From Escherichia coli (GTDB lineage Bacteria > Pseudomonadota > Gammaproteobacteria > Enterobacterales > Enterobacteriaceae), in assembly GCF_016026235.1 (NCBI RefSeq), contig NZ_CP065613.1: a stretch of 64,000 nt of DNA; one strand, written 5' to 3'. The notes below the pieces were generated by a model that was not told the origin of the DNA, did no database searches, and saw only the letters and a list, made by a program, of their open reading frames with translations. Shown in pieces: positions 29,456 to 57,567 of the stretch. Each line of letters begins with the position of its first letter. Position 1 is the stretch's first letter. A program made the translations under genes and the position numbers.

Positions 29456-29532
29456 GGCCCTTTAGCTCAGTTGGTCAGAGCGAGCGACTCATAATCGCCA
29501 GGTCGCTGGTTCAAGTCCAGCAAGGGCCACCA
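29456..29532 (+). tRNA. tRNA with anticodon CAU (Ile2/Met-like, ileZ-type)
   Basis: Cloverleaf by eye: acceptor GGCCCTT/AAGGGCC, anticodon loop CTCATAA, T-arm GCTGGTTCAAGTCCAGC, 3' CCA encoded. Confidence 0.8.
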
Positions 29533-29533
29533 A

Positions 29534-29610
29534 CCACCACTAGCTCATCCGGATAGAGCATCAACCTTCTAAGTTGACGGTGCGAGGTTCGAGTCCTCGG
29601 TGGTGGGCCA
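29534..29610 (+). tRNA. tRNA-Arg (anticodon UCU) with atypical 5' C-start acceptor stem
   Basis: Acceptor CCACCAC/GTGGTGG, anticodon loop CTTCTAA, T-arm CGAGGTTCGAGTCCTCG, CCA encoded. Confidence 0.65.
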
Positions 29611-29612
29611 GC

Positions 29613-29688
<76 letters not shown>

Positions 29689-29691
29689 TAT

Positions 29692-29766
<75 letters not shown>

Positions 29767-32323: not shown

Positions 32324-32869
32324 AAATCTCTTTGTTTCTCGTGTGCGATCGTGGTCGCTCGCTAAATTCCGCGCTGCATCGTCGCCGTATTTCCGCATTA
32401 ACTATGACCGTAGCCCGACGGGGAACTCCTTCTGCGCGAGTGTGCGGGAATAATCAAAAACGATGCACACCGGGTTTTTACCGCGTTTATGGTTCGCGGG
32501 TTTGTCCCTCATGCTCGCCAGTCCTGTGCGGGGGTGGAAGAAACAGGACACTTACACTGATTCTTGTGGGTACGATGCTATTCCTTTCTGGATTATCCCG
32601 ATGTCATTCATGCAGGGCGCTGTATCAGACGTTCGTCATGGCTGTCAGGCTGACGGGTCCTCCCGGTGGGGTGGCCTGCCACGGGGCGGGAGCGGCGCGG
32701 AAAAAGGCTAGTTTTTGAAATTTCATTCGTCATCACCACTACTGTAATGTATTGATATTACAGTGGTTTTATTTTTGTGCTGTCGGTTTTGATTGTTTTT
32801 TGTTCATCACTAACACCGTTTGCCTAAAGTTGTTCGCAAGATGCATGTTTAAAACATTCTGGAGCGGGT

Positions 32870-33363
32870 ATGGATCGAGAGTTAAAAAATCTGACGCTGA
32901 ATATCAGTCAACTGGCGGCACTGTCAGGTGTACATCGCCAGACTGCTGCGGCAAGGCTGCAAAATCTACCCGTTGCAGGGGGCATGAAAGCAACCTCAAG
33001 CTTTATCGGGTGGTTGATATTGTGTCGGCATTTCTGGCATTACCACCGCCGGTTGCAGAAGGCGAAATGGACGCGCATGAGCGCAAAGCCTGGTATCAGT
33101 CTGAACGTGAGCGTCTTAAGTTCGAACAGGAAACGGCACAACTCATTCCGGCCAGTGATGTCAGACGGGAGTTTGCCATCTGGGCAAAAGCGGTCGTGCA
33201 GGTGCTGGAGACATTACCGGATATTCTTGAACGTGACTGCGGTCTGCAGCCTGCCGCTGTGAGCCGTGTTCAGTCCATTATTGATGATCTGCGCGATCAG
33301 ATAGCCCTGCGGGTGACTGAAGCAGGTGCGGATGATGAGGAGGAATTACAGCAGGAGGAGTAA
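32870..33363 (+). CDS. Terminase small subunit, reading frame broken once
   Basis: N-terminal HTH-like segment (MDRELKNLTLNISQLAALSGVHRQTAAARL) in one frame, C-terminal part (…NLKLYRVVDIV…EEELQQEE) in the -1 frame; bridged by adding one G to the G5 run at 32978..32982. Confidence 0.6.
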
Positions 33364-35443
33364 TGCTGAATCAGGAAACCGCAAAGGCAGCACGAACCGA
33401 TTCAGGTTATATCCTTCGCGCACCAAGACGAATGCGGGTTGCTGATGCCGTTGCTCAGTATATGCGGGTGCCCATGGGGCAGGGAACTCAGTCCCGTGGG
33501 ATCCGCTGGTGGCACCGTATGTTATTGAGCCGATGAACTGCCTGGCCTCGCGTGAATACGACGCAGTGATATTTGTTGGCCCGGCACGAACCGGCAAGAC
33601 TATCGGCCTGATTGACGGCTGGGTGATTTACAACGTGATTTGCGATCCTGCTGATATGCTGATCATTCAGATGACGGAGGAAAAAGCCCGCGAACACTCC
33701 AAAAAACGACTCGCCAGAACGTTTCGCGTCAGCCCGGAAGTGGTCAGTCGCCTGAGTCCGAACAAAAATGACAACAACGTTTATGACAGAACATTCCTTG
33801 CTGGCAACTACCTGAAAATCGGCTGGCCGTCAGTCAATATCATGTCCTCATCAGATTATAAATGCGTCGCGCTGACGGATTATGACCGTTTTCCGGAAGA
33901 TATTGATGGTGAGGGGGATGCTTTCTCTCTTGCCTCAAAACGTACCACAACATTTATGTCCAGTGGTATGACGCTGGTGGAGAGTTCCCCCGGCAGGGAT
34001 GTGAAGGATGTGAAATGGCGACGGACTTCACCGCATGAGGCTCCACCAACCACGGGGATACTGTCGCTCTATAACCGTGGCGATCGCCGTCGCTGGTACT
34101 GGCCCTGTCCACACTGTGGTGAGTATTTTCAGCCCTGCGGCGATGTGGTTGCTGGTTTCCGTGATATTGCCGATCCCGTGCTGGCAAGTGAGGCGGCTTA
34201 TATTCAGTGTCCTTCCTGTTCAGGACGGATTATGCCTGAACAAAAACGTGAGCTGAACGGACGTGGGGTCTGGTTGCGGGATGGTGAATCCATCAATGCG
34301 GATGGCAGTCGTTATGGTGATCCCAGGCGTTCACGTATTGCGTCATTCTGGATGGAGGGTCCGGCAGCTGCTTACCAGACACTCTCGCAACTCGTTTACA
34401 AACTGCTTACTGCAGAACAGGAATACGAGACAACCGGAAGTGAAGAAACACTCAGGGCGGTTATCAACACCGACTGGGGATTACCTTATCTTCCCCGCGC
34501 CAGCATGGAGCAACGAAAAAGTGAACTGCTTGAGCAGCGGGCAGAGCCTGTTCCTCCCCGCTGCGTGCCGGATGGTGTTAATTTCCTGGCGGCGACAGTG
34601 GATGTGCAGGCGGGACGTCATCGCCGTTTTGTGGTTCAGGTAACGGGTTATGGTTGCCGTGGCGAACGCTGGATTATTGATCGTTACAACATCACGCAGT
34701 CATTGCGTTGTGACAACAACGGAGAAAGCCTGCGAATTGATCCTGCTGGTTATCCTGAGGACTGGGATGTCCTGCTGACGGATGTTTTTCATAAAAGCTG
34801 GCCGTTGGCCTCCGATCCTTCTCAACAAATGCGACTGATGGCAATGGCGGTGGACTCCGGCGGTGAAGACGGGGTCACTGATAATGCCTATAAATTCTGG
34901 CGTCGTTGCCGTCGTGATGGCCTTGGTAAACGTATTTACCTGTTTAAGGGCGACAGCATCCGGCGCGCAAAACTGATCACCCGTACATTCCCTGATAACA
35001 CCGGACGAACGGGCCGACGGGCGCAGGCCGCAGGTGATGTGCCGCTCTGGCTTCTTCAGACGGATGCCCTGAAAGACCGGGTGAATAACGCGTTATGGCG
35101 TGACTCGCCAGGTCCCGGCTATGTGCATTTCCCTGACTGGCTGGGGAGCTGGTTTTACGACGAACTGACGTATGAAGAGCGGAGCAGTGACGGGAAATGG
35201 AGTAAGCCGGGTCGAGGTGCCAACGAAGCTTTTGACCTGATGGTGTATGCCGAGGCTCTGGTCATTCTGCATGGTTACGAGAAAATTCAGTGGCCGGATG
35301 CGCCGGAATGGGCATGCAGGGAAACCTGGCTGGAGCGTGTCAGGGACGATGCCGGACTGTCAGCCTCGCCGGAGCCGGTATCCGTGTCCGTTAAAAAAAG
35401 AAACGAAAAAAAGTGGTGCCTGATGAAGAAAACCCATGGGTGA
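33363..35443 (+). CDS. Terminase large subunit (lambda gpA-like)
   Basis: Walker A VGPARTGKT and CPHCG zinc-finger-like motif; TAATG coupling with SD GAGGAG at 33363, but the frame then needs +1 C near 33493..33495; alternative in-frame ATG at 33446. Confidence 0.75.
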
Positions 35444-35672
35444 CTTCCGGAGGATGGTTGTGAACCAGAATGATATTGAAGCCATGATCCATCGTTATAT
35501 CAATGCGGAAATGGCAGTGCTGGACGGAAAGTCCATTACTTTTAATGGTCAGCAGATGACCATGGAAAACTTATCCGAGATCCGACAGGGGCGGCAGGAG
35601 TGGGAACGTCGCCTTGCGACTCTGGCTGCGCGGCGACGGGGGACGCCGGGCTATAAACTGGCGAGGTTCTGA
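35436..35672 (+). CDS. Head-tail joining protein (gpW-like)
   Basis: 78 aa with C-terminal RRRGTPGY resembling lambda W; sits between terminase and portal. Confidence 0.45.
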   Translation: MGDFRRMVVNQNDIEAMIHRYINAEMAVLDGKSITFNGQQMTMENLSEIRQGRQEWERRLATLAARRRGTPGYKLARF

Positions 35673-37176
35673 TGGCAATTCTTGATGATGTGATTGGTGT
35701 TTTTTCACCTGGCTGGAAAGCTGCGAGATTGCGCTCAAGGGCATTAATTCGTGCCTATGAGGCAGTGAAGCCTACTCGTACACATAAAGCCCGGCGGGAA
35801 AATCGTTCTGCCGACCAGCTCAGTAAGTACGGTGCAGTTTCCCTGCGGGAGCAGGCTCGTTTTCTGGACATCAATCATGATCTGGTAATCGGTGTTTTCG
35901 ACAAACTTGAGGAACGGGTGATTGGTGCAAAAGGGATCGTTGTCGAACCCCAGCCATTACTGAAGAACGGTGATATAGCCACAGAGCTGGCAATGATTAT
36001 CCGTCGCTTGTGGGTGGAATGGTCTGTCAGTCCGGATGTGACCGGGCAGTATACGCGCCCCATGCTCGAGCGTCTGCTGCTGCGTACCTGGTTACGTGAT
36101 GGTGAAGTGTTTGCCCAGCTGGTTCGTGGTGCCGGCGGCGGGCTGGTGCGGACTGCTGGCGTGCCTTTCTGGATCGAGGCAATGGAGCCGGATTTTGTGC
36201 CCATGCTCAGTGATGAATCTGTGGGGTTGAATCAGGGTGTTTTTCTGGATGACTGGGGCAGACCGAAAAAATACCTGGTTTATAAAAATCATCCGACTAC
36301 CGGGCGGCTGAGTGATACCAAAGAGATCGTTGCCGAAAATATGGTGCATCTGAAATTTACCCGTCGTCTGCATCAGACGCGTGGTACATCCATGTTGTCA
36401 GGTGTGCTGATGCGGATCAGTGCGCTTAAGGAATATGAAGATGCTGAGCTGACAGCGGCGCGTGTTGCTGCGGCTCTGGGGCTGTATATCCGTAAAGGAG
36501 ATGGGCAGGATTATGAAGACGCCACGATAAATAAAGATAATGACCGGGAACTGCATATCACCCCTGGCATTATTTATGACGATTTGCGCAAGGGGAAGAT
36601 ATTGGCATGGTCAAATCTGATCGGCCCAATCCTAACCTTGAAACTTTTCGTAACGGGCAGCTGCGTGCGGTGGCCGCAGGCAGTCGTATGAGTTTTTCCA
36701 GTGCGGCGCGCAATTACAACGGTACCTACAGCGCTCAGCGACAGGAGCTGGTCGAGTCCACTGACGGGTATCTGATCCTGCAGGACTGCTTTATTGGTGC
36801 TGTAACCCGTCCCGTGTACCGGACGTGGCTGAACATGGTGGTAGCAGCAGGTCTGCTGAAAATCCCGTCGGATGTGGATATGAAAACGTTGTGTAACGCA
36901 ACATATTCCGGTCCGGTCATGCCGTGGATTGATCCGGTTAAGGAGGCTGAGGCCTGGAAAATCCAGATTCGCGGTGGAGCGGCGACAGAATCAGACTGGG
37001 TGCGAGCAGGTGGGCGTAATCCGGATGATGTCAAACGTCGGCGCAAGGCTGAAATTGATGAAAACCGCAAGCTGGGTCTGATATTTGATACCGATCCGGC
37101 CAGTGATAAAGGAGGCAGCAGTGTCGCAACGAAACGACAGGAGCCGCAGCACACCGACGGCCAGTCCGAAGAATAA
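35672..37176 (+). CDS. Portal protein, reading frame broken once
   Basis: 339-aa N-terminal ORF and 189-aa C-terminal ORF in the -1 frame; adding one G to the G4 run at 36592..36595 joins them (…LRKGEDIGMVKSDRPNPN…). Confidence 0.75.
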
Positions 37177-39180
37177 TTCCTGGTTCAGGATGCAGGCAGG
37201 TCACCAGAGTGACGCGGATATTTATATTTATGACGAGATTGGTTTCTGGGGTGTTACGGCGAAGCAGTTTATCAGCGATCTGAATGCACTGGGCGATATC
37301 ACCCACATTAATCTCCATATCAATTCACCGGGTGGCGATGTCTTTGAAGGCATCGCCATTTTTAATGCACTGAAAACACATGGTGCGTCCATTACCGTTT
37401 ATGTCGACGGTGTGGCGGCATCAATGGCGTCGGTCATTGCGATGGTGGGAAACCCGGTCATTATGCCGGAAAACACCTTCATGATGATTCATAAACCATT
37501 TGGCTTTACGGGCGGTGATGCGGAGGACATGCGCACCTATGCCGACCTGCTCGATAAAGTTGAGGCGGTTCTGTTACCCGCTTATGCACAGAAAACCGGG
37601 AAAACCACCGATGAAGTTGCTGCCATGCTGGCGGATGAGACCTGGATGTCCGGTGCCGAATGTCTGGCACATGGATTTGCTGATCAGGTGACGCCAGCCG
37701 TTAAGGCAATGGCATGTATTCAGTCAAAACGTACAGAGGAATTTAAAAAGATGCCGGAATCCATTCGAAACATGATTACTCCGCCACGCAACAGTGCAAC
37801 GCGTGAACCTGAAAACAAAAATACTGCATCTCAGACACAGGAGCAGACTACGGCTCAGGTTGCCACAACCGCGACCACCACAAATGCACCTTCCGCAGAT
37901 GAAAGCAGTATCCGTGCGCAGGTACTGGCAGAGCAAAAAGCACGTGTGAGTGGTATTAATGAACTGTTTGGTATGTTTGGCGGGCGTTATCAGACATTGC
38001 AGGCCAGTTGTCTTTCCGATCCGGAGTGCTCGCTTGAGCAGGCCCGTGAGAAATTACTTAACGAAATGGGTAAGGAATTTTCACCATCAAATAAAAATAC
38101 CCCGGCCCATATTTATGCCGGAAACGGTAATTTTGTGGGGGACGGGATCCGCCAGGCGCTGATGGCGCGTGCCGGGTTTGAAAAAACTGAACGTGATAAT
38201 GTCTACAACGGGATGACCCTGCGTGAATATGCCCGTATGTCACTGACTGAACGGGGTATTGGGGTTTCCGGTTATAACCCGATGCAGATGGTCGGGGCAG
38301 CGTTCACACACAGTACGTCTGACTTCGGTAATATTCTGCTGGATGTTGCGAACAAAGCCATTCTGCAGGGCTGGGAAGATGCCCCTGAAACCTATGAACA
38401 GTGGACGCGGAAAGGTCAGCTGTCTGATTTTAAAATTGCCCATCGTGTGGGTATGGGGGCTTCAGTGCTCTGCGTCAGGTGCGTGAAGGAGCGGAATATA
38501 AATACGTTACTACCGGAGATAAACAGGCCACGATTGCACTGGCGACCTATGGTGAACTGTTCAGTATCACCCGTCAGGCCATTATCAACGATGATCTGAA
38601 TATGCTGACCGATGTCCCGATGAAACTGGGCCGTGCGGCAAAATCCACTATTGCCGATCTGGTTTATGCCATTCTGACGTCTAACCCGAAAATCTCCACA
38701 GATAATGTAAGTCTGTTCGATAAAGCGAAACATGCAAACGTACTGGAGAGCGCTGCAATGGACGTGGCATCGCTGGATAAAGCCCGCCAGTTGATGCGTG
38801 TTCAGAAAGAGGGTGAGCGTCATCTGAATATTCGTCCTGCGTTCGTACTGGTACCGACGGCGATGGAGTCTGTTGCTAACCAGGTCATTCGCTCCTCAAG
38901 TGTCAAGGGGGCTGACATTAACGCCGGTATTATTAACCCGGTGAAAGATTTTGCGACCGTTATTGCAGAGCCTCGTCTTGATGATAACAGCCAGACCACC
39001 TTCTACCTGGCTGCGTCCAAAGGCTCCGATACGATTGAAGTGGCTTATCTCAACGGTGTGGATACGCCATATATTGATCAGATGGAGGGCTTCAGTGTGG
39101 ATGGCGTGACAACGAAAGTGCGTATTGACGCTGGTGTCGCGCCAGTTGATCACCGCGGTCTGGTGAAATGTACGGCGTAA
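37121..39180 (+). CDS. Prohead protease (ClpP-like) fused to scaffold and major capsid protein, reading frame broken once
   Basis: N-terminal ClpP-like block (DIYIYDEIGFWGV…INSPGGDV…MIHKP); capsid-like C-terminus in the -1 frame from 38479; bridged by adding one G to the G5 run at 38455..38459; GTG start with SD GGAGG. Confidence 0.65.
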
Positions 39181-39266
39181 ACGTCGCAGATAACAACTCT
39201 GATGGCCCGTAAGGGCTTTTTTTGTACCTGAAATCAGCCCCTGAACGGGGCTGTGCGGAGACAGTT

Positions 39267-39590
39267 ATGGCAAAGAATTTTGTAGAAGAAGGGAAAACGG
39301 TGGCGATTGTTGCCAGTGCAGCCATCAGCAGCGGAGATCTGGTGCAGGTGGGTGATGTTTTTGCGGTGGCGCTGACCGATATTCCACAGGGTGAAACAGG
39401 CGACGGCCTGACCGAAGGTGTGTTTATGCTGCCTAAGCTGAAAACGGATGACATGAAAACGGGTAAGAAGGTTTTTCTGAAGTCCGGAAAAGTTCAGCTG
39501 ACTAACAGCGGCTCTGATCCGCTGGTCGGGGTTGTCTGGGCAGATGCCGGAGCTGGTGCAGAAGAAGTGCCGGTAAAACTCAATGTCTGA
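39267..39590 (+). CDS. Small head protein (108 aa), resembles DUF2190; decoration-protein position
   Basis: ORF with SD; role inferred from position. Confidence 0.4.
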   Translation: MAKNFVEEGKTVAIVASAAISSGDLVQVGDVFAVALTDIPQGETGDGLTEGVFMLPKLKTDDMKTGKKVFLKSGKVQLTNSGSDPLVGVVWADAGAGAEEVPVKLNV

Positions 39591-39858
39591 TCCCTTTTCC
39601 CGGCTGGCAGCGCGTATGGATGCGATCACGGTCAGAAAGATGGGAAAGATGGCCTCGATTAATGATGTTTATATGCCTGTGCTCCCGGGAGAAACTCTGG
39701 CAGAGCTGAACGCTCTGTCCGGACCGGCGGTCTCTCTGGTGGTGTTTTCTTCGGGATACCGCCCACGGCGCGGGGACCGCGTTGTTTATGACGGACAACA
39801 ATGGACGGTCACACGGCATGAACGCTTTAACGGTAAACCAATGATCTTTATTGAGTAA
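39583..39858 (+). CDS. Head-tail connector/adaptor-like protein
   Basis: 91-aa ORF in the head-completion gene position. Confidence 0.35.
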   Translation: MSDPFSRLAARMDAITVRKMGKMASINDVYMPVLPGETLAELNALSGPAVSLVVFSSGYRPRRGDRVVYDGQQWTVTRHERFNGKPMIFIE

Positions 39859-39869
39859 AGAGGTGTGGG

Positions 39870-40454
39870 ATGAAGGGGCTTGAGAATGCCATCCGTAATC
39901 TGAACAGCCTCGATACCCGCATGGTGCCACAGGCCAGCGCATGGGCGGTAAACCGTGTGGCGGCAAAGATTATTTCTGTCGCCACACGGCAGGTTGCGCA
40001 GAATACCGTTGCCGGGGATAACCAGGTGAAAGGTATTCCCCTGAAAACGGTCAGGGAGCGTGTCAGGCTGCTTAAAGCCAGCCCCTCAGGAAAAATGTAT
40101 GCCCGCATGCGTGTTAACCGGGGTAACCTGCCCGCCATTAAGCTGGGTACCGCACAGGTCAGACTGGCCCGCTCCCGGCATGGCAGCAACTCACGTCATC
40201 GTGGCAGCGTACTGAAAGTGGGGAAATACCTTTTCCGGGATGCGTTTATTCAGCAACTGGCGAATGGTCGCTGGCATGTGATGCGGCGTATTGACGGCAA
40301 AAATCGTTACCCCATTGATGTGGTGAAAATCCCGCTGTCCGGACCGCTGACACAGGCATTTGAAGATGCCCGCGACCGCATCATTGCTGCGGAAATGCCG
40401 AAACAGCTGGGGTATGCACTGAAACAACAACTGAGGTTATGGCTGACCCGATGA
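39870..40454 (+). CDS. Head-tail joining / tail completion protein
   Basis: 194-aa ORF; role from position. Confidence 0.35.
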   Translation: MKGLENAIRNLNSLDTRMVPQASAWAVNRVAAKIISVATRQVAQNTVAGDNQVKGIPLKTVRERVRLLKASPSGKMYARMRVNRGNLPAIKLGTAQVRLARSRHGSNSRHRGSVLKVGKYLFRDAFIQQLANGRWHVMRRIDGKNRYPIDVVKIPLSGPLTQAFEDARDRIIAAEMPKQLGYALKQQLRLWLTR

Positions 40455-40852
40455 ACCGACATACACAGATCCGCCAGGTCGTACTGGCACGCCTTCGGGA
40501 ACAGTGTGGAGACAGCGCCACGTTTTTTGACGGGCTTCCGGCATTTGTTGATGCGCAGGAACTGCCTGCCGTGGCGGTGTGGCTGAGTGATGCTCAGTAC
40601 ACCGGAAAAATGACGGATGAAGATGACTGGCAGGCTGTTCTGCATATTGCTGTCTTCATCCGGGCACAGGCACCGGATTCAGAGCTGGATATGTGGATGG
40701 AGAGCACCATTTTCCCGGCCCTGAATGATGTACCGGCACTTTCCGGACTCATCGACACCATGAACCCACTCGGTTTTAACTATCAACGTGATAATGAGAT
40801 GGCCACCTGGGCGATGGCGGAAATCACGTACCAGATCACGTACACGAATTAA
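40439..40852 (+). CDS. Tail terminator protein (gpU-like position)
   Basis: 137-aa ORF immediately before the major tail gene. Confidence 0.4.
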   Translation: MADPMNRHTQIRQVVLARLREQCGDSATFFDGLPAFVDAQELPAVAVWLSDAQYTGKMTDEDDWQAVLHIAVFIRAQAPDSELDMWMESTIFPALNDVPALSGLIDTMNPLGFNYQRDNEMATWAMAEITYQITYTN

Positions 40853-40862
40853 GGAGGTGGCA

Positions 40863-41603
40863 ATGACCACACCAAATCCACTGGCAAAAACGAAAGGTGC
40901 GGGAACGACGTTCTGGATGTACACCGGCAAGGGCGATGCGTTTGCGAACCCTTTGTCGGACACTGACTGGCTGCGTCTTGCGATGGTGAAGGATCTGCAA
41001 CCTGGCGAAATGACCGCTGATGCAGAAGATGACACTTATCTCGATGATGAAGATGCAGACTGGAAAACGACAACCCAGGGGCAGAAATCCGTCGGTGATA
41101 CTTTGGCGACGCTGGCCTGGCGTCCGGGTGACAGCGGGCAGAAAAAACTGGTTCAGTTGTTCGATTCCGGTGAAGTCTGCGCGTTTCGTATCAAATACCC
41201 CAACGGTACGGTTGATGTTTTCCGTGGCTGGCTGAGTTCACTGGGTAAAACCATTACCTCAAAAGAGGTGATGACCCGTACTGTAAAAATCAGCGGTGTG
41301 GGGCGTCCGTATCTGGCAGAGGAGGGCGCTGAAACCGTGGGTGTTACCGGACTGACGGTGGCACCGGCATCTGTCAGTGTCAAAGCGGGAGCAACCACCA
41401 CACTGACCTTTACAGTAAAACCTGACGGGGCCAGTGACAAAGCGATCAGTGTGCATTCGTCAGATCCTCAGACTGCTTCGGTGACCCTGAGCGGGCTTGT
41501 GGCCACGGTGAAAGGCGTGAAGCAGGGCAGTGTCAGCATCGTGGGCATGACCTCTGACGGAGAGTTTGTGGCAGTGGCTGCGGTGACCGTCAGCGCACCA
41601 TAA
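40863..41603 (+). CDS. Major tail protein (lambda gpV-like with C-terminal Ig-like domain)
   Basis: MTTPNPLAKTKGAGTTFWMYTGKGD…VDVFRGWLSS… closely resembles lambda V as I recall it. Confidence 0.8.
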   Translation: MTTPNPLAKTKGAGTTFWMYTGKGDAFANPLSDTDWLRLAMVKDLQPGEMTADAEDDTYLDDEDADWKTTTQGQKSVGDTLATLAWRPGDSGQKKLVQLFDSGEVCAFRIKYPNGTVDVFRGWLSSLGKTITSKEVMTRTVKISGVGRPYLAEEGAETVGVTGLTVAPASVSVKAGATTTLTFTVKPDGASDKAISVHSSDPQTASVTLSGLVATVKGVKQGSVSIVGMTSDGEFVAVAAVTVSAP

Positions 41604-41624
41604 CAGGACGATACTCATCATTGC

Positions 41625-41646
41625 CCCGGTTATCCGGGGCTTTTTG
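41625..41646 (+). terminator. Hairpin plus T-run after the major tail gene
   Basis: CCCCGGTTATCCGGGGCTTTTTG. Confidence 0.4.
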
Positions 41647-41658
41647 CATCCGGAGAAC

Positions 41659-42048
41659 ATGATGTTTCTGAAACAGGATACGTTTAATTATGAAAAACAG
41701 TCCGTGGTGCTCAGTGAGCTGTCCGGGCTGCAGAGAATTGAATATCTGACGTTTGTTCAGCAGCGAACGGCAAAGTTTGATGCACAGGAGGGAGAACTGC
41801 CGGAGGCTGAACGACAGATTGCTTTTCTGCGTATGGGAATGGATATCAATGCCTGGCTGGTTTCCCGCTCACTGTGGAATGCTGAGCAGTCTCAGGATGT
41901 TGAGACGCTTTGCGCATCCATTATGACAACATGGTCGTATGATGCGCTGGGCGCGGGGGCGGAGAGGGTTCTGTCGCTGAGCGGTATGGGGACCATTGAG
42001 AATGCCGGGGATGATGATCATGAGGCGCTGACGCCGGAAAAGTCCTGA
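41659..42048 (+). CDS. Tail assembly chaperone (gpG-like)
   Basis: Acidic about 130-aa protein preceding the tape-measure gene; ends at a Lys-codon slippery run. Confidence 0.6.
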   Translation: MMFLKQDTFNYEKQSVVLSELSGLQRIEYLTFVQQRTAKFDAQEGELPEAERQIAFLRMGMDINAWLVSRSLWNAEQSQDVETLCASIMTTWSYDALGAGAERVLSLSGMGTIENAGDDDHEALTPEKS

Positions 42049-42056
42049 CGCGGGAA

Positions 42057-42386
42057 ATGCAGTTTGTCATGCGGCTTGCCCGGGAGTTCCGGCGGGCAGA
42101 CTGGCGGCGGATGCTGTCGGAAATGTCGGCCACTGAGCTTGGTGAGTGGGGCGATTATTTCCGGATGCAGAGCTTCAGTGATGTGTGGATGGATGCGCAG
42201 TTTGCCTCGCTGAAGGCATTGATCGTGAGAATGGTGTCCGGCAGCAGCGATGCTGCGGTGGCTGATTTCAGCCTTTTACCGGAAGAGAACGGGATACCGG
42301 AGCGAACGGACGAAGAACTGATGCATCTTGGGGAAGGTATTTCCGGAGGTGTGCGTTATGGACCAGATAGCCAACCTGGTCATTGA
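42057..42386 (+). CDS. gpT-like segment, probably expressed as G-T fusion by programmed -1 frameshift
   Basis: ORF in the -1 frame relative to G, with no plausible start of its own; GAAAAG run at the end of G. Confidence 0.5.
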   Translation: MQFVMRLAREFRRADWRRMLSEMSATELGEWGDYFRMQSFSDVWMDAQFASLKALIVRMVSGSSDAAVADFSLLPEENGIPERTDEELMHLGEGISGGVRYGPDSQPGH

Positions 42387-45300
42387 TTTGGGGATTGATG
42401 CGGCAGAGTTTAAAAATGAAATTCCCCGTATCAAAAACCTTCTGAATGGTGCAGCCAGCGATGCAGAACGGTCTTCTGCCCGTATGCAGCGTTTTATGGA
42501 GCGTCAGACTCAGGCCGCCCGGCAGACAACGCAGGCGGCTTCTTCGGCTGCAACAGCCGCATCCGTCCATGCGCAGACGGTGGAGAAGAACGCACAGGCT
42601 CATGAACGCATGGCCCGCGAGGTGGAGAAAACCCGCCAGCGCATGGAGGCGCTGAGCCAGAAAATGCGCGAGGAACAGGCGCAGGCCAGGGCACTGGCGG
42701 AGGCGCAGGATAAAGCGGCTGCCGCCTTTTATCGCCAGATTGACAGTGTGAAACAGGCCGGTGCGGGGCTTCAGGAATTACAGCGTATTCAGCAGCAGAT
42801 CCGACAGGCCAGAAACAGTGGCGGGGTTGGTCAGCAGGATTATCTGGCGCTGATTTCGGAGATCACGGCGAAAACCCGTGCCCTGACGCAGGCAGAGGAA
42901 CAGGCCACCCGGCAGAAAGCGGCGTTTATCCGCCAGCTTAAAGAGCAGGCAACCCGCCAGAATCTGTCGTCTTCTGAGTTGCTTCGCGCCAGGGCGGCTC
43001 AGCTGGGGGTAAGCAGTGCTGCAGAAGTGTATATCCGCAAAATGGAGCGGGCAGGAAAAGCCACACATTCGCTGGGGCTGAAAAGTGCGGCAGCCCGGCG
43101 GGAGCTGGGGGTGTTAATCAGTCAGATGGCGCGCGGCAATTTTGGTGCGCTGAGGGGATCCGGGATAACGCTGGCTAACCGTGCCGGATGGACAGGCGCA
43201 CTGATGTCGCCGAAAGGCATGATGACTGGCGGCGTTATTGGCGGACTTGTCGCGGCGGTCCTGGGTCTGGGTAAAGCCTGGCATGACGGCCGGAAGGAGG
43301 GCGAGGAATTTAACCGTCAGCTGGCGCTGACGGGACATTATGCCGGTGTCACTGTCGGGCAGTTGTGGAAACTCAGCCGGGCCATATCCGGGAATGGTAT
43401 CACGCAACATGCGGCAGCCGGTGCGCTGGCACAGGTGGTGGGCAGTGGGGCATTTCATGGAAACGATATTGGTATGGTGGCGAAAGCTGCCGCACAGATG
43501 GAGCGATCGGTTGGCCAGTCGGTCAGCGATACCATAAATCAGTTTAAGCGGCTGAAGGATGATCCTGTAAATGCCGCGAAGGCGCTGGACAATGCGCTGC
43601 ATTTTTTGACTGCCACTCAGCTTGAGCAGATACGCGTCCTTGGGGAGCAGGGGCGGTCCAGTGATGCGGCCCGGATCGCCATGTCTGCGCTGGCAGAGGA
43701 AACCGGTAAACGCACATCTGATATTGATAATAATCTCAATGCGCTGGGTAGTACGCTGCAAACCTTGTCTGACTGGTGGAAGCAGTTCTGGGATGCGGCC
43801 ATGAATATTGGTCGTGAAGACTCGCTGGATGCGCAGATTGATGCGTTACAGGAAAAAATTCAGCGCGCGAAAAAATATCCGTGGACAAACGCCTCCACAC
43901 AGGTGGAGTACGATCAGCAGCGTCTTAACGATCTTCAGGAGAAAAAACGCCGGAAGGATTTGCAGGATGCAAAAGCGCAGGCAGAACGGAATTACCAGGA
44001 GCAACAGAAACGCCGGAATGCTGAAAATGCCGCGCTGAACCGGATGAATGAAACGGAAGCTGCACGACATCAGCGGGAAATTGCGCGTATTAATGCCATG
44101 CAGTACGCCGACCAGGCTGTCAGGGATGCGGCGATACAGCGTGAAAATGAACGTTACGAAAAAGCCATTAAGAAAAATACACGGGCAACCCGTAATGATG
44201 AGGCCACCCGGTTATTGCTGCAGTACAGTCAGCAGCAGGCACAGGTGGAAGGGCAGATTGCTGCTGCCAGACAGTCAGCAGGCATTGCCACTGAAAGGAT
44301 GACTGAAGCGCATAAACAGCTTCTGGCCCTGCAGCAGCGCATCAGCGACCTGGGCGGGAAAAAGCTGACGGCAGATGAAAAGAGTGTGCTGGCCCGTAAG
44401 AATGAGCTGATTCAGGCGCTGACGCTGCTGGATGTGAAACAGCAGGAGCTGCAGAAACAGACAGCGCTTAACGACCTGAGAAAAAAAACGGTTCAGCTGA
44501 CCAGCCAGCTGGCAGACAAAGAACGTGCACTGCGTGAGCAGCACAATCTGGATATTGCCACTGCAGGTATGGGGATAAGCAGCGGCAGCGCTACCAGGCA
44601 CAGTTGCGCATCCGGCAGGAATACCGGCAACAGTTGCAACAGCTTGAGAATGACAGTCGCCAGAAAGGCACTTACGGGACGGAGGACTACCGGAGGGCTG
44701 AGGAGGTGCTGAAGGGGAGCCTGAAGCGACAACTGAATGAAAACAAACGCTACTGGCAGGAACTGGAAGTGGCGCAGGGCGACTGGAAAAACGGTGCCAT
44801 GCGGGCGTTTCAGAATTTTACGGCGGATGCGGATAATGCGGCGGGAACGGCAGAACAGATGTTTACAGTGGCATTCAGCAGTGCCGGTAATGCACTGGCG
44901 ACATTCTGTACCACCGGTAAGCTGAATTTTAAATCCTTTACCTCTTCCCTGTTGTCAGATATGGCCAGAATTATGGCACAGATGGCCATGATGCAGGCGG
45001 TAAAGGGCGTCGGTTCTTTATTCGGCTTCACGACTAATGCTGATGGCGGTGTTTACCAGTCTGCTGATTTGAGTCGCTACAGTGGCACGGTGGTTAACCG
45101 TCCGACGTTTTTTGCTTTTGCAAAAGGCGCGGGTGTGATGGGGGAAGCGGGACCTGAAGCCATTCTGCCACTGCGTCGCGGTGCTGATGGTAAGCTGGGG
45201 GTTGTGGCGGATACTGGTGGTTCAGGCATGGTGATGTTTGCCCCGCAGTACAACATTGAGATCAATAACGATGGCACGAACGGGCAGATAGGTCCGGCTG

Positions 45301-45398
45301 CCCTGAAGGTGGTTTATGACCTCGGGAAAAAAGCGGCCGCGGACTTTATGCAACAGCAGGCCCGTGATGGTGGCCGGTTAAGTGGAGCATACCGGTAA
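42358..45398 (+). CDS. Tail tape measure protein (gpH-like), reading frame broken once
   Basis: Long Ala/Gln-rich coiled-coil protein; 794-aa ORF continues in the -1 frame as a 264-aa ORF; adding one G to the G4 run at 44571..44574 gives about 1013 aa. Confidence 0.8.
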
Positions 45399-45727
45399 TG
45401 GAGACGTTTCACTGGAAAGTGCGCCCGGATATGAATGTGGTATCAGAGCCGAAAGTGGTGACAGTGAAGCTGGGCGATGGTTATGAACAGCGTCGTGCGG
45501 CGGGACTGAATAACCAGTTGTCGACTTACAGCGTGACGATACGTGTTCGTAAAGGTGAACACCCATCTTTAAAAGCCTTTCTGGAACGGCACGGTGGCGT
45601 CCGCGCATTTCAGTGGACGCCACCTTATGACTGGAAGCCGATCAGGGTGGTTTGTCGTAAATGGTCGGCAAGCGTGGGGGCGTTGTGGGTAACCATAACG
45701 GCAGATTTTGAACAGGTCGTGGCATAG
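45398..45727 (+). CDS. Minor tail protein M
   Basis: 109 aa, same length and position as lambda M. Confidence 0.75.
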   Translation: METFHWKVRPDMNVVSEPKVVTVKLGDGYEQRRAAGLNNQLSTYSVTIRVRKGEHPSLKAFLERHGGVRAFQWTPPYDWKPIRVVCRKWSASVGALWVTITADFEQVVA

Positions 45728-45736
45728 GAGTCTCTG

Positions 45737-46435
45737 ATGCAGGATATTCCACAGGAAACACATCATGAGACGACACGCCTCACTCAGTCAGCCCAGGTGG
45801 TGCTCTGGGAAATCGATCTGACAGTGGTCGGTGGAGAACGTTATTTTTTCTGTAATGAGCAGAACGATAAAGGTGAGCCGGTCACCTGGCAGAGGCGACA
45901 GTATCAGGCGTATCCCATTCAGGGGACGGGATTTGAACTGAACGGCAAAGGCAGTGCTGCCCGTCCGACACTGACGGTTTCTAACCTGCACGGCATGGTC
46001 ACCGGGATGGCGGAAGACCTGCAGAGTCTGGTCGGAGGAACGGTGGTCCGGCGTAAGGTTTACGCCCGTTTTCTGGATGCGGTGAACTTCGTCAACGGAA
46101 ACAGTGACGCCGATCCGGAGCAGGAGGTGATCAGCCGCTGGCGCATCGAGCAGTGCAGCGAACTGAGCGCGGTGAGTGCCTCTTTTGTACTGTCCACGCC
46201 GACGGAAACGGACGGCGCTGTTTTTCCGGGGCGCATCATGCTGGCTAATACCTGCACCTGGACCTATCGCGGTGATGAGTGCGGTTATCACGGTCCGGCG
46301 GTCGCGGATGAATATGACCAGCCGACCTCCGATATCACGAAGGATAAATGCAGCAAATGCCTGAGCGGCTGTAAGTTTCGCAATAACGTCGGCAACTTTG
46401 GCGGCTTCCTTTCCATTAACAAACTTTCGCAGTGA
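45737..46435 (+). CDS. Minor tail protein L
   Basis: 232 aa; C-terminal Cys cluster (CSKCLSGCKF) as in lambda L. Confidence 0.8.
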   Translation: MQDIPQETHHETTRLTQSAQVVLWEIDLTVVGGERYFFCNEQNDKGEPVTWQRRQYQAYPIQGTGFELNGKGSAARPTLTVSNLHGMVTGMAEDLQSLVGGTVVRRKVYARFLDAVNFVNGNSDADPEQEVISRWRIEQCSELSAVSASFVLSTPTETDGAVFPGRIMLANTCTWTYRGDECGYHGPAVADEYDQPTSDITKDKCSKCLSGCKFRNNVGNFGGFLSINKLSQ

Positions 46436-47184
46436 ATCCCATGACAGAGACAGAATCAGCGATTCTGGCGCACGCCCGGCGATGTGCGCCAGCGGAGTCG
46501 TGCGGCTTCGTGGTGAGAACACCGGAGGGGGAAAGATATTTTCCCTGCGTGAATATCTCCGGTGAGCCGGAGGAGTATTTCCGGATGTCGCCGGAGGACT
46601 GGCTGCGGGCAGAGATGCAGGGTGAGATTGTGGCGCTGGTCCACAGCCACCCCGGTGGTCTGCCCTGGCTGAGTGAGACCGACCGGCGGCTGCAGGTGCA
46701 GAGTGATTTGCCGTGGTGGCTGGTTTGCCGGGGGGCGATTCACAAGTTCCGCTGTGTGCCACATCTTTCCGGGCGGCGCTTTGAGCACGGGGTGACGGAC
46801 TGTTACACGCTGTTCCGGGATGCTTACCATCTGGCGGGGATTGAGATGCCGGATTTTCATCGCGAGGATGACTGGTGGCGTAACGGTCAGAATCTCTATC
46901 TGGATAATCTGGAGGCCACAGGGCTGTATCAGGTGCCGTTGTCAGCGGCGCAGCCGGGCGATGTGCTGCTGTGCTGTTTTGGTTCATCGGTGCCGAATCA
47001 TGCCGCCATTTACTGTGGTGACGGCGAGCTGCTGCACCATATTCCTGAACAACTGAGCAAACGAGAGAGGTACACCGACAAATGGCAGCGACGCACACAC
47101 TCCCTCTGGCGTCACCGGGCATGGCACGCATCTGCCTTTACGGGGATTTACAACGATTTGGCCGCCGCATCGACCTTCGAGTGA
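46432..47184 (+). CDS. Tail assembly protein K (JAB/MPN plus NlpC/P60-like)
   Basis: HSHPGG JAB motif and a Cys/His peptidase-like C-terminus. Confidence 0.8.
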   Translation: MNPMTETESAILAHARRCAPAESCGFVVRTPEGERYFPCVNISGEPEEYFRMSPEDWLRAEMQGEIVALVHSHPGGLPWLSETDRRLQVQSDLPWWLVCRGAIHKFRCVPHLSGRRFEHGVTDCYTLFRDAYHLAGIEMPDFHREDDWWRNGQNLYLDNLEATGLYQVPLSAAQPGDVLLCCFGSSVPNHAAIYCGDGELLHHIPEQLSKRERYTDKWQRRTHSLWRHRAWHASAFTGIYNDLAAASTFE

Positions 47185-47729
47185 AAACGGGGTCCGAAGC
47201 CATCCGGGCGCTGGCCATGCAGATCCCGGCGTTTCGTCAGAAACTGAGCGACGGCTGGTACCAGGTACGCATTGCCGGGCGTGATGCAGGTGAAACCGAA
47301 TTGTCTGCCCGTCTTAATGAGCCGCTGGCAAATGGTGCCGTGATCCACATCGTGCCGCGTCTGGCGGGAGCTAAAAGTGGCAGTGTGTTTCAGGTGGTGC
47401 TGGGGGTGGCGCTGATTGCGGTGGCATGGTGGAACCCTGTGGGCTGGCTGGGTGCCGCGGCTGTATCGGGCATGTATGCGGCAGGGGCCAGTATGATCCT
47501 GGGCGGAGTGGCGCAGATGCTGGCACCGAAAGCCAGGACGCCCACGGCAGCAAGTACAGATAACGGCAAACAGAACACCTATTTCTCCTCACTGGATAAC
47601 ATGGTTGCCCAGGGCAATGTTCTGCCCGTTCTGTACGGTGAAATGCGCGTGGGGTCGCGGGTGGTCTCTCAGGAGATCCGCACGGCAGACGAAGGGGATG
47701 GTGGTCAGGTTGTGGTGATTGGTCGCTGA
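47082..47729 (+). CDS. Tail assembly protein I
   Basis: 215 aa overlapping the end of K, as in lambda; hydrophobic Gly/Ala-rich C-terminus. Confidence 0.7.
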   Translation: MAATHTLPLASPGMARICLYGDLQRFGRRIDLRVKTGSEAIRALAMQIPAFRQKLSDGWYQVRIAGRDAGETELSARLNEPLANGAVIHIVPRLAGAKSGSVFQVVLGVALIAVAWWNPVGWLGAAAVSGMYAAGASMILGGVAQMLAPKARTPTAASTDNGKQNTYFSSLDNMVAQGNVLPVLYGEMRVGSRVVSQEIRTADEGDGGQVVVIGR

Positions 47730-47786
47730 TGAAAAACGTTTTATGTGAAACCGCCTCCGGGCGGTTTTGTCGTTTATGGAGCGTGA

Positions 47787-51198
<3,412 letters not shown>

Positions 51199-51867: not shown

Positions 51868-51930
51868 TTAGCCAGGTAACACAGTGTTATGACAGCCCGC
51901 TGGTTCAGGCGGGCTTTTTGTGGGGTGAAT

Positions 51931-54117: not shown

Positions 54118-54975
54118 CTAATTGGGTGATAACAGATCCTGTGTATGGGCGTTTCCCTTTGTGCGTGCGTTGATGCTGGTAACGGTAAACGTCATGATGA
54201 ACACGACCGCGAATAAGACGACAATCGTCGGAGCTGGTGCGCTGTCGATAAAAAAGGACAGCCAGACACCAGTCATTGACACTATTACCGATATGCCAGT
54301 CGCCAGTAGGAGCGCAATATGAAAGCGTTGTGTCAGGAGTACTGCAATGGCGCCAGGCGCAATGAGCAGAGAAATAGAGAGAATGATACCTACTGCTTTC
54401 AGCGTCGCCACAATGGTCAGGGAAACCATGCACAGCAGCCCATAATGCAGCCATCTCGTATGCAAACCGCTTACCTGCGCCTGTTGATAATCAAAGCTGA
54501 ACAGCAAAAAATCCCGCCATTTTACGCTAATAACAAGTGTAACCAGCCCGGCAATAATCACCGTCTGGATTATATCGCCGATGGTTATCCCGAGCATGTC
54601 GCCGAAAAGAATATGGTCAAGATGTACGTCTGGTTTGATTGCAATATACAAGATCAGACCTGCGGCAAACATGCCAGAAAAAACAATCCCCATAACTGTA
54701 TCTTGCTTGATTCGGCTGTTGTCTTTCAGGTATCCCGTCGCCACCGCGCAGAATACTCCGGCGACGAATGCCCCTGTAGCCAGAGGTAACCCCAGAATCC
54801 AGGTAAGCACGATGCCAGGAAAAACCGCATGACTCATCGCGTCACCCATCAGTGCCCAACCTTTCAGGACCAGAAAGACCGACAGCAGCGCACAGGGTAT
54901 GGAAACTACCAGTGAAATCAGCAGTGCGTGACTCATAAAGGTGAACTGCAGTGGCTCCAGTAATAATGCCATCAT
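54118..54975 (-). CDS. sitD: Mn/Fe ABC transporter permease SitD
   Basis: 285-aa polytopic membrane protein; last gene of a four-gene operon with overlapping stops and starts. Confidence 0.8.
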   Translation of the reverse strand: MMALLLEPLQFTFMSHALLISLVVSIPCALLSVFLVLKGWALMGDAMSHAVFPGIVLTWILGLPLATGAFVAGVFCAVATGYLKDNSRIKQDTVMGIVFSGMFAAGLILYIAIKPDVHLDHILFGDMLGITIGDIIQTVIIAGLVTLVISVKWRDFLLFSFDYQQAQVSGLHTRWLHYGLLCMVSLTIVATLKAVGIILSISLLIAPGAIAVLLTQRFHIALLLATGISVIVSMTGVWLSFFIDSAPAPTIVVLFAVVFIMTFTVTSINARTKGNAHTQDLLSPN

Positions 54976-55829
54976 GAGCGATCCTCCAGCGCTTTATGCG
55001 CACGCCGACGATTTGCCAAAAGTCCATGGGTGGGCGCAAATACAAATGCTAAAAGAAACAGCAGTGTCTGCGCCACCACGATGATTCCACCTGTCGCGCC
55101 GTCCAGAAAGTAACTGACCCACGCGCCGAGGAAACTGGTTACACTGCCAATAGTTACAGCAATTATGAGCAGGCGGGGAAAACGATCGGTTAACAACCAT
55201 GCTGTTGCACCGGGAGTCACCACCAGACAGATCACCAGAAAGGCACCAACCGTTTGCAGCGCCGCAACGGTCGAAACCGACAGCAGGGTGAAGAAGAGGA
55301 TTTTTAATCTGCCCGGATGTAATCCAATAGCACGGGCGTGATTCTCGTCGAAAAAGGTCACCATAAGATCTTTCCATTTGAAAAAAAGCACGATGATCGA
55401 GAGAATGCCAATGATAGTGAGTTGCAGGATATCCGCCGGATCGATTGCCAGAATATTGCCCAGGACGATGGTCTGAATGTTCACGGATGTCGGGTTCAAT
55501 GACACCATAAACAGCCCCAGGCCAAAAAAGGACGAGAAGATCAGGCCGATGATGGCATCTTCTTTTAAGCGGGTGCGTTGGTTAAGAAACAGCATGCTGC
55601 CCGCTGCCAGTCCGCCGGAAAAGAAGGCTCCCAGAGAAAACGGAAGCCCCAGCATATATGCCCCCGCAACACCCGGGACAATAGAGTGCGACAGCGCATC
55701 GCCAATCAGCGACCAGCCTTTTAGCATCAGATAGCATGACAGGAAAGCGCAGAGACCGCCGACCATTGCCGAGACCCACATCGCATTGAGCATATATTCA
55801 TAGCTGAAGGGTTCCAGTAGCACGTTCAT
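54972..55829 (-). CDS. sitC: Mn/Fe ABC transporter permease SitC
   Basis: 285-aa membrane protein, paralogous to the next permease. Confidence 0.8.
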
Positions 55830-56653
55830 CTTGCTTCCCTCTGCACCGCTGACGGTCGATGTGCCACAAAAGGGCGTTCATCGTCAGTAATAATGCTTTC
55901 TTCCGAGCCGTTAAGTGTGACATGGCGCAGTACGCCGCTAAAAGCCAGCTCCAGGTTCTCGGCTGTAAAAGTGGTGTCTGTCGGCCCGCTTGCCAGGACG
56001 GTGCCTTTGACCATGACCGTATAATCGCAAAATGTCGTGACTGAGCCGAGATTGTGCGTTGAGACAAGCATCGTTTTGCCTTCCGCGCGTAACTCCCTCA
56101 ACAGGCTGATGATTTTCGCTTCGGTTTTCACATCAACGCCGGTAAAAGGTTCATCCAGCAGGATCACATCACCCTGCTGTGCAATCGCTCTCGCCAGAAA
56201 GACGCGTTTCTTTTGTCCACCGGAAAGCTCGCCGATTTGACGATGGCGAAAATCCACCATATCGACACGTTCCAGCGCATCGGTGACAATCTGACGATCC
56301 CTCTTTTTGGCTATACGCAACATACCCATATGCCCATAGCGGCCCATCATCACCACATCTTCCACCAGTACAGGAAATGACCAGTCAACCTCTTCTGACT
56401 GAGGGACGTAGGCAACCAGGTTTTTCTGTAGCGCCTGTCGCGTGGGAATACCCAGAACAGATATCTTTCCGCTGGTCAGACGCACAAATCCCATAATCGC
56501 TTTAAACAACGTCGATTTTCCGGAACCGTTTACCCCAACCAGAGCGGCAATAGATCCACTTGGTACTGTGAAGGATGCATCGCGCAGTGCTGTGTGCCCG
56601 TTACGCCAGGTGACAGTAACATCATTAACGACAATGCCTGCAGATTGCATCAT
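55826..56653 (-). CDS. sitB: Mn/Fe ABC transporter ATP-binding protein SitB
   Basis: GVNGSGKST Walker A, LSGGQ signature, ILLDEP Walker B. Confidence 0.85.
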
Positions 56654-57567
56654 TATTTCTCCCTTTTCCCGGCTTTAATTCCCTGTACCAGCGTACTGGT
56701 AGTAACCTTAAGAAGGTCGATATACGTAGGTACCGGGCCGTTTTCTGTGCTCAGGGAATCGACATAGAGCACACCGCCGTAGTGTGCGCCGGTTTCACGC
56801 GCAACCTGACGCGCTGGTTTATCGGAAATCGTACTCTCGCTAAAGACTGCCGGGATATGATTTTTCTTAACTATATCAACAACCTTACGTACCTGCTGCG
56901 GTGTTCCTTGTTGATCGGCATTAATCGGCCACAGATAAAGCTCTTTTAGCCCCAAATCGCGTGCGAGATAAGAAAAAGCCCCTTCACTGGTGACCATCCA
57001 TCGCTGATTCTCAGGGAGTTCCGTAATCTGCTTACGCAGGGGGGCAAGGGTTTGGGTAATCTTGGCTTTATAAGTATCGGCATTACGTTGGTAGGTTTGT
57101 GCATTTGCCGGATCGTATTTTATCAACGCATCACGAATATTATCGACGTAAATCAGAGCATTATCTGGCGACATCCATGCATGGGGATTAGGTTTGCCCT
57201 CATAGGGTCCTTCGGTGATCCCTACTGGCGTCACACCCGAAGAGACAATTACTTCTGGAACCCCATTGAGATGCTGGTAAAAGCGTTGGAACCACAATTC
57301 CAGATTCATACCATTGGCGAGAATCAGTTGTGCCCCCTGCGCACGTTTAATATCGCCAGGGGTAGGCTGATACTCATGAATTTCTGCACCAGGCTTGGTT
57401 ATGGATGAGACTTCTGCAGCATCTCCAGCCACGTTTTTGGCCATATCCGCGATGATGGTAAATGTTGTAATGACCTTGAATTTTTCAGTTGCACTTGCCT
57501 GAAATGCGATCGAGCAGGTGAGGGCGAGGCACCCCAAGAGCATGGTTACTTTTTTTATTGAGTGCAT
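56653..57567 (-). CDS. sitA: Periplasmic Mn/Fe-binding protein SitA
   Basis: 304 aa with signal peptide; closely resembles SitA as I recall it ([21 protein letters not shown]…). Confidence 0.85.

Follow-up and report, generated by a model that had tools for sequence, protein, structure and literature searches.

The fusion gene of this study, coding for a ClpP-like prohead protease, a scaffold-like segment and a major capsid protein, occupies positions 37121..39180 on the plus strand of the window (the whole 64,000-nt stretch of DNA that was analysed), and is frame-broken as written. The list of open reading frames contains two overlapping entries on the plus strand and in different frames, 37085..38599 (504 aa) and 38479..39180 (233 aa). 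They join at ATGGGGGC, with a run of five G residues at 38455-38459. In a three-frame translation, the upstream frame reads "...FKIAHRVGMG" and the downstream frame "GFSALRQVREGAEYKYV...". Addition of one G at 38455-38459 generates a 2061-nt open reading frame for 686 amino acids, which starts with GTG at 37121 and stops with TAA at 39178-39180. A Shine-Dalgarno sequence, AGGAGG (37110..37115, plus strand), can be read in the sequence 5 nt before the GTG start, and the PGAP boundaries of the intact orthologue in NZ_CP065615.1, start included, are the same as those of the repaired frame. All three parts of the protein are in a single frame when the G is restored, as they are in the relative L022 (GCA_900449985.1), but not in the G5 version. 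A database protein (P0016), present on 172 contigs, is identical to the repaired product. The frame correction is justified because of this exact match, and because a relative with otherwise identical DNA carries the extra G. An earlier sequence-only reading of the same DNA had placed the correction at 38455..38459 and predicted one product of about 685 aa, in agreement with the 686 aa found here.

The gene is embedded in the late region of a lambdoid prophage. Upstream are genes for a DUF1441 small terminase, a gpA-type large terminase, a 70-aa protein, and a lambda-family portal protein (35672..37176, plus strand). The portal gene is broken as well, by a G-run deletion at 36592, and Pfam finds Phage_portal_2 on both fragments; it overlaps the start of the fusion gene by 56 nt. 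The fusion gene is directly followed by a hairpin that resembles an intrinsic terminator, GGCCCGTAAGGGC with seven T residues (39204..39227, plus strand), and the record of phage mEp460 has a terminator annotated at the equivalent place. Next in order are a 107-aa head decoration (cement) gene of the DUF2190/Phage_cement_2 family (39267..39590, plus strand; Pfam E=9e-20), which is 60% identical to the Gifsy-2 gene at the same position, a gene of the PF13856 "Gifsy-2" family, and homologues of lambda Z, U, V, G, T and H. The interval from the portal to the first tail gene (the gpZ homologue) thus contains only three genes, namely the fusion gene, Phage_cement_2 and PF13856, and the annotations of close relatives of either prophage half list no other capsid, scaffold or protease gene. 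Both observations bear out the earlier suggestion that there is no separate major capsid gene between portal and tail.

On the chromosome, which is E. coli/Shigella-like, the prophage adjoins ttcA and starts with an intR-type integrase, and its right end abuts sitABCD, uspF, ompN and nifJ. When complete E. coli genomes were searched for this prophage at its present insertion site, the best match had 81% coverage and 97.4% identity, which is too distant for a direct comparison of the homopolymer runs.

Domain architecture and family of the fusion protein

The N-terminal part of the protein is a ClpP-fold serine protease domain (residues ~32-196; 37214..37708, plus strand), according to Pfam, NCBIfam, alignment to ClpP and Foldseek. 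The Pfam search was run with the product from Met24, and its coordinates were converted to the numbering of the 686-aa protein. CLP_protease matches residues 46-191 (E=7e-36), and the NCBIfam head maturation protease model NF045542 matches the N-terminal part. Alignment to ClpP crystal chains assigns the catalytic residues Ser101, in the sequence GVAASMA, and His124, in the sequence MMIHKP, the latter invariant in all 88 diverse homologues of the alignment. The position of the ClpP aspartate is taken by Glu173, which Asp172 adjoins. A full-length AlphaFold model from the 88-homologue alignment has a mean pLDDT of 88.6, with low confidence confined to residues 1-18, 224-257 and a short hinge (333-335). 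Foldseek comparison of the N-terminal domain with ClpP structures gives TM scores of 0.75-0.83, normalised to the target. The ClpP-type protease of the sequence-only reading is thus found by profile and by fold.

The protease is followed by a variable, disordered Thr/Ala/Gln-rich linker (residues ~224-257; 37790..37891, plus strand), the presence of which had also been predicted. It is delimited by pLDDT, composition and divergence from mEp460, and is the sole long low-confidence segment of the AlphaFold model, with pLDDT values below 50. Between linker and capsid part lies a helical segment (residues ~261-318; 37901..38074, plus strand), with AlphaFold helices at 261-284, 291-299 and 305-318 and an E..R...I...F motif that is kept across the 88-sequence alignment. 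By analogy with the Gifsy-2 literature, this segment may have a scaffold role.

The C-terminal half is an HK97-fold major capsid protein domain (residues ~338-686; 38132..39177, plus strand), identified by Pfam, AlphaFold and Foldseek; the frame break falls within it, at codons 446/447. Phage_capsid_4 matches residues 388-683 (E=3e-54). Since Foldseek with the full-length model returned ClpP matches alone, the C-terminal part was modelled separately. The model of the C-terminal 359 residues (pLDDT 92.7, pTM 0.88) matches encapsulins and phage coat proteins with probability 1.00, the latter including HK97 Head I (2fs3), T5 pb8, D3, SaPI1 and phiCD508. A sequence search of the PDB with the capsid part identified no close relative with a solved structure. 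Profile searches and the HK97 fold agree on a capsid domain, and the alternative that the C-terminal half does not have a capsid fold fails.

The architecture is neither new nor rare. The protein matches the NCBIfam model NF045540 (scaf_prot_MCP1), named 'ClpP-like prohead protease/major capsid protein fusion protein', with 983.7 bits against a cut-off of 475 and over model positions 2-651 of 652, and it aligns end to end with PHROG 133 (positions 3-667 of 668). The DNA of the gene is matched in 2077 of 5426 complete E. coli genomes, and also in many isolated phages. With the capsid domain alone, 10,659 representative proteins are found at E<=0.001. Among the best 150 clusters, 113 consist of proteins of at least 600 aa that match at their C-terminal end, which indicates that the fusion prevails among capsid proteins of this type. 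The locus is therefore an unremarkable representative of the Gifsy-2-type 'tripartite capsid gene' family, which is already known, curated and very common.

Relation to Gifsy-2, lambda and HK97

[quoted passage not shown] The Gifsy-2 gene, STM1034.3n (NC_010393 22471..24561), has the same three-part architecture, and its product is 69% identical to the protein in the window over 676 aa. Together with the profile searches, structure prediction and fold search, this identity confirms the three-part reading of the gene. The neighbours are shared as well, with a lambda-family portal upstream, and the 107-aa decoration gene and PF13856 downstream, followed by Z-U-V-G-T-H. The late region is collinear with that of Gifsy-2 from terS through the tail genes, and the rest of it is 41-70% identical. 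The protein in the window differs from its Gifsy-2 counterpart in being 10 aa shorter and in the sequence and length of the linker, and the window copy of the gene is one nucleotide short in the G-run. Phages mEp460, cdtI, phi458, Ayreon and Tritos are closer, with about 96.5% nucleotide identity to the gene in the window. The mEp460 protein is 94% identical, and the differences are nearly all in the hypervariable linker, including an 11-aa indel.

In lambda, the same job is done by C/Nu3/D/E. Protease and scaffold are encoded in one frame (C/Nu3) in lambda, but the coat protein is separate, whereas it is fused to the protease-scaffold here. The decoration protein is of the Phage_cement_2 family and is not a homologue of lambda gpD. 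BLASTP detects no significant similarity of the fusion protein to lambda gpC (E=0.38) or gpE (E=1.4), and the lambda record annotates gpC as an S49 family peptidase. The helical segment aligns with the Nu3 part of lambda gpC weakly and at motif level (E=0.38). The portal and terminase belong to lambda families, with 21% identity for the portal and 24% for terL, compared to 49-56% for the tail proteins Z, U and V. In HK97, the coat protein (gp5) is likewise preceded by a removable scaffold segment, the delta-domain. However, the HK97 protease (gp4) is the product of a separate gene and has a different fold, in contrast to the fused protease in the window. In the literature, crosslinks, and not a cement protein, are described as stabilising the HK97 shell.

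The sequence-only reading had interpreted the head and tail modules as mosaic with respect to lambda. This holds in so far as the head is far from lambda and the tail is close to it. It does not mark a local recombination junction, because the whole late region is collinear with that of Gifsy-2, and the contrast between head and tail is thus an old, lineage-wide trait. Gifsy-2 is listed in PMC6471424 among phages with head and tail modules of different types, and the head/tail contrast of Gifsy-2 is already remarked on in that article and in PMC12315714.

Whereas domain content, folds, catalytic residues, synteny and homology to Gifsy-2 are matters of observation at this locus, an assembly pathway can be proposed by analogy, from the Gifsy-2 work as cited in later papers. 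The 686-aa polyprotein carries the ClpP-fold protease at its N-terminus and the HK97-fold coat protein at its C-terminus, with the flexible linker and the helical scaffold-like segment between them. Procapsids would be built from it on the portal, and their interior would hold the protease and scaffold parts. The protease might then cut away about the N-terminal half of the polyprotein, roughly 320-340 residues. The shell would be expected to expand as DNA is packaged, and the cement protein from the downstream gene would presumably bind to the mature shell.

Origin of the frame break

The shortfall of one nucleotide at 38455..38459 (plus strand), which causes the frame break, is best judged in the context of the surrounding DNA. 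Every intact relative, phage mEp460 included, has G6 where the window has G5. Between 32404 and 47896 (15.5 kb), the window differs from L022 by zero substitutions and six 1-nt deletions, all in homopolymer runs. Five of the deletions are in G runs, at 32978 (in the small terminase), 33476 (large terminase), 36592 (portal), 38455 (fusion gene) and 44571 (tape measure), and one, at 35393, shortens A8 to A7 in the large terminase. All six are also seen against another relative. Further deletions of one nucleotide are found at 50237 (T6 to T5) and 50286 (A5 to A4), both of which break gpJ, in an intergenic T-run at 51915, and in a C-run at 2966, within a gene of the flank that relatives already carry as a pseudogene. 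Comparison with the two closest references, L022 and L028, shows indels of one direction only, always with the loss on the side of the window, and those of 1 nt are all in homopolymers. At least five late genes other than the fusion gene are broken by this kind of lesion, which had gone unnoticed in the first reading.

These data suggest that the G5 run is most probably a technical homopolymer error of sequencing or assembly, written in place of G6, and not a biological feature. Judged by E. coli mutation spectra, a stretch as long as this should have collected more substitutions than homopolymer indels, and the same is expected of mismatch-repair mutants. The combination of zero substitutions and six slippage deletions is unlike neutral decay, and therefore favours a technical error over a real mutation. 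Runs of at least five bases are shortened more often in the late region (6/68, positions 32371-45700) than in the chromosomal flanks (2/104). Repeated prophage DNA that was incompletely polished would account for this enrichment of deletions, and so would real prophage decay. One noisy assembly has G8 at the 38455 site and many other lengthened runs. When the truncated N-terminal product was looked up by exact match, with each of three possible starts, no database entry was found, which indicates that this particular frame-broken allele is unrecorded elsewhere.

The most serious alternative is a real frameshift in a defective prophage, in which capsid, portal, terminase, tape-measure and gpJ would all have been inactivated by slippage deletions. 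The clustering of eight frame-breaking 1-nt deletions in the prophage, compared to one in the ~20 kb of flank coding sequence, could be explained in this way, and genomes related to the host strain are of the Shigella/EIEC type, with many pseudogenes and IS elements. Moreover, G5 at the 38455 site recurs in other assemblies. However, those assemblies contain further indels, mostly 1-nt homopolymer deletions, at sites that vary from assembly to assembly, which is the pattern of technical noise. The six indels in the 15.5 kb are also not accompanied by any substitution, and nonsense mutations and insertions are absent. We therefore regard a real frameshift as unlikely, though not negligible.

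A biological role of the run itself is far less probable still. It would be very surprising if the G6 tract and similar tracts in the late genes formed a slippage-prone switch that reversibly silences virion production, or allowed low-level -1 slippage decoding. Even harder to defend is the idea that the run serves for programmed -1 frameshifting by the ribosome or for slippage in transcription, which would produce a majority of truncated protease-scaffold and a minority of full-length protein, and so set the ratio of protease to coat. On AUG GGG GCU, a tRNA-Gly in the P site could slip back by one base and pair again, which would restore the frame, and the G5 allele is present in several assemblies. 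Nevertheless, intact carriers such as mEp460 have G6 and one open frame, as does the otherwise identical DNA of L022, and the break is located ~60 aa inside the capsid domain, away from a domain boundary. Downstream of the G-run there is no stable RNA structure (z=+0.88), and an X XXY YYZ heptamer is lacking. Lesions of the same type also occur in the terminase, portal, tape-measure and gpJ genes, for which we know of no recoding.

Two separate genes, one for a protease-scaffold protein and a short one for a capsid protein from GTG 38479, can practically be dismissed: the list does give two open reading frames, and gene finders call the 233-aa product in 134 contigs, but this product lacks the N-terminal ~90 residues of the Pfam capsid domain as well as the N-arm and helices of the fold, the upstream frame ends in ~46 out-of-frame residues, and in all eight of the 134 contigs that were examined the upstream part is itself broken, by different frameshifts or a nonsense codon.

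Implications for annotation

Taken together, the locus is best explained as a Gifsy-2-type gene in a lambdoid prophage by ttcA, the product of which would be a polyprotein by analogy with Gifsy-2, and the frame of which is most probably broken for technical reasons. We assign a probability of about 0.88 to this joint reading. As a discovery, the gene is of little value, because the fusion has been described for Gifsy-2, a naming model exists at NCBI, and more than a third of complete E. coli genomes have the gene. Its practical use lies in annotation, where it should be entered as coding for a single 686-aa protein. Anyone inclined to call the prophage defective should first consider that its eight frame breaks in homopolymer runs are probably errors of assembly.

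Homopolymer deletions in the late genes

Over positions 32404..47896 the prophage was aligned with an intact relative (GCA_900449985.1), and by sequence comparison the two are 100% identical across 15.5 kb apart from single-base deletions in G or A runs. Loss of 1 nt from a G run breaks the frame of the small terminase gene (32978), the portal gene (36592), the gene for the fused protease, scaffold-like and capsid parts (38455) and the tape-measure gene (44571), and the large terminase gene is broken twice, first in a G run (33476) and then in an A run (35393). The tail-tip gene gpJ also carries two frame-breaking 1-nt homopolymer deletions, T6 to T5 at 50237 and A5 to A4 at 50286, which lie about 50 nt apart. 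A GTG repeat at 51077 differs with the reading frame kept, and an intergenic T run at 51915 is likewise shortened by homopolymer deletion.

The fusion gene linker and the tRNA cluster

Alleles of the fusion gene hardly differ in their protease and capsid parts, and the Thr/Ala/Gln-rich linker (37790-37891) is the sole hypervariable part, with an 11-aa indel relative to E. coli phage mEp460. Upstream of the lysis genes, the prophage carries four clustered tRNA genes (29456-29766) with the anticodons CAT, Arg-TCT, Thr-TGT and Gly-TCC; the CAT tRNA is called Met by ARAGORN and Ile in the annotation of relatives.

Integration site and host chromosome

The prophage is integrated at the ttcA (Rac) attachment site. 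Its right end adjoins the sitABCD iron/manganese transporter operon (54118-57567, minus strand), which is followed by uspF, ompN and nifJ. In the chromosomal flank, a C5 to C4 deletion at 2966 truncates a DHA2-family efflux gene; the annotations of the two closest genomes already give this gene a frameshift, at another position. Compared with FDAARGOS_943, the most similar chromosome, 15 bp are missing at 571, in or near an AraC-family regulator gene. Both ipaH and IS600/ISSfl3 are present in the host's nearest relatives, which makes these relatives Shigella/EIEC-like.
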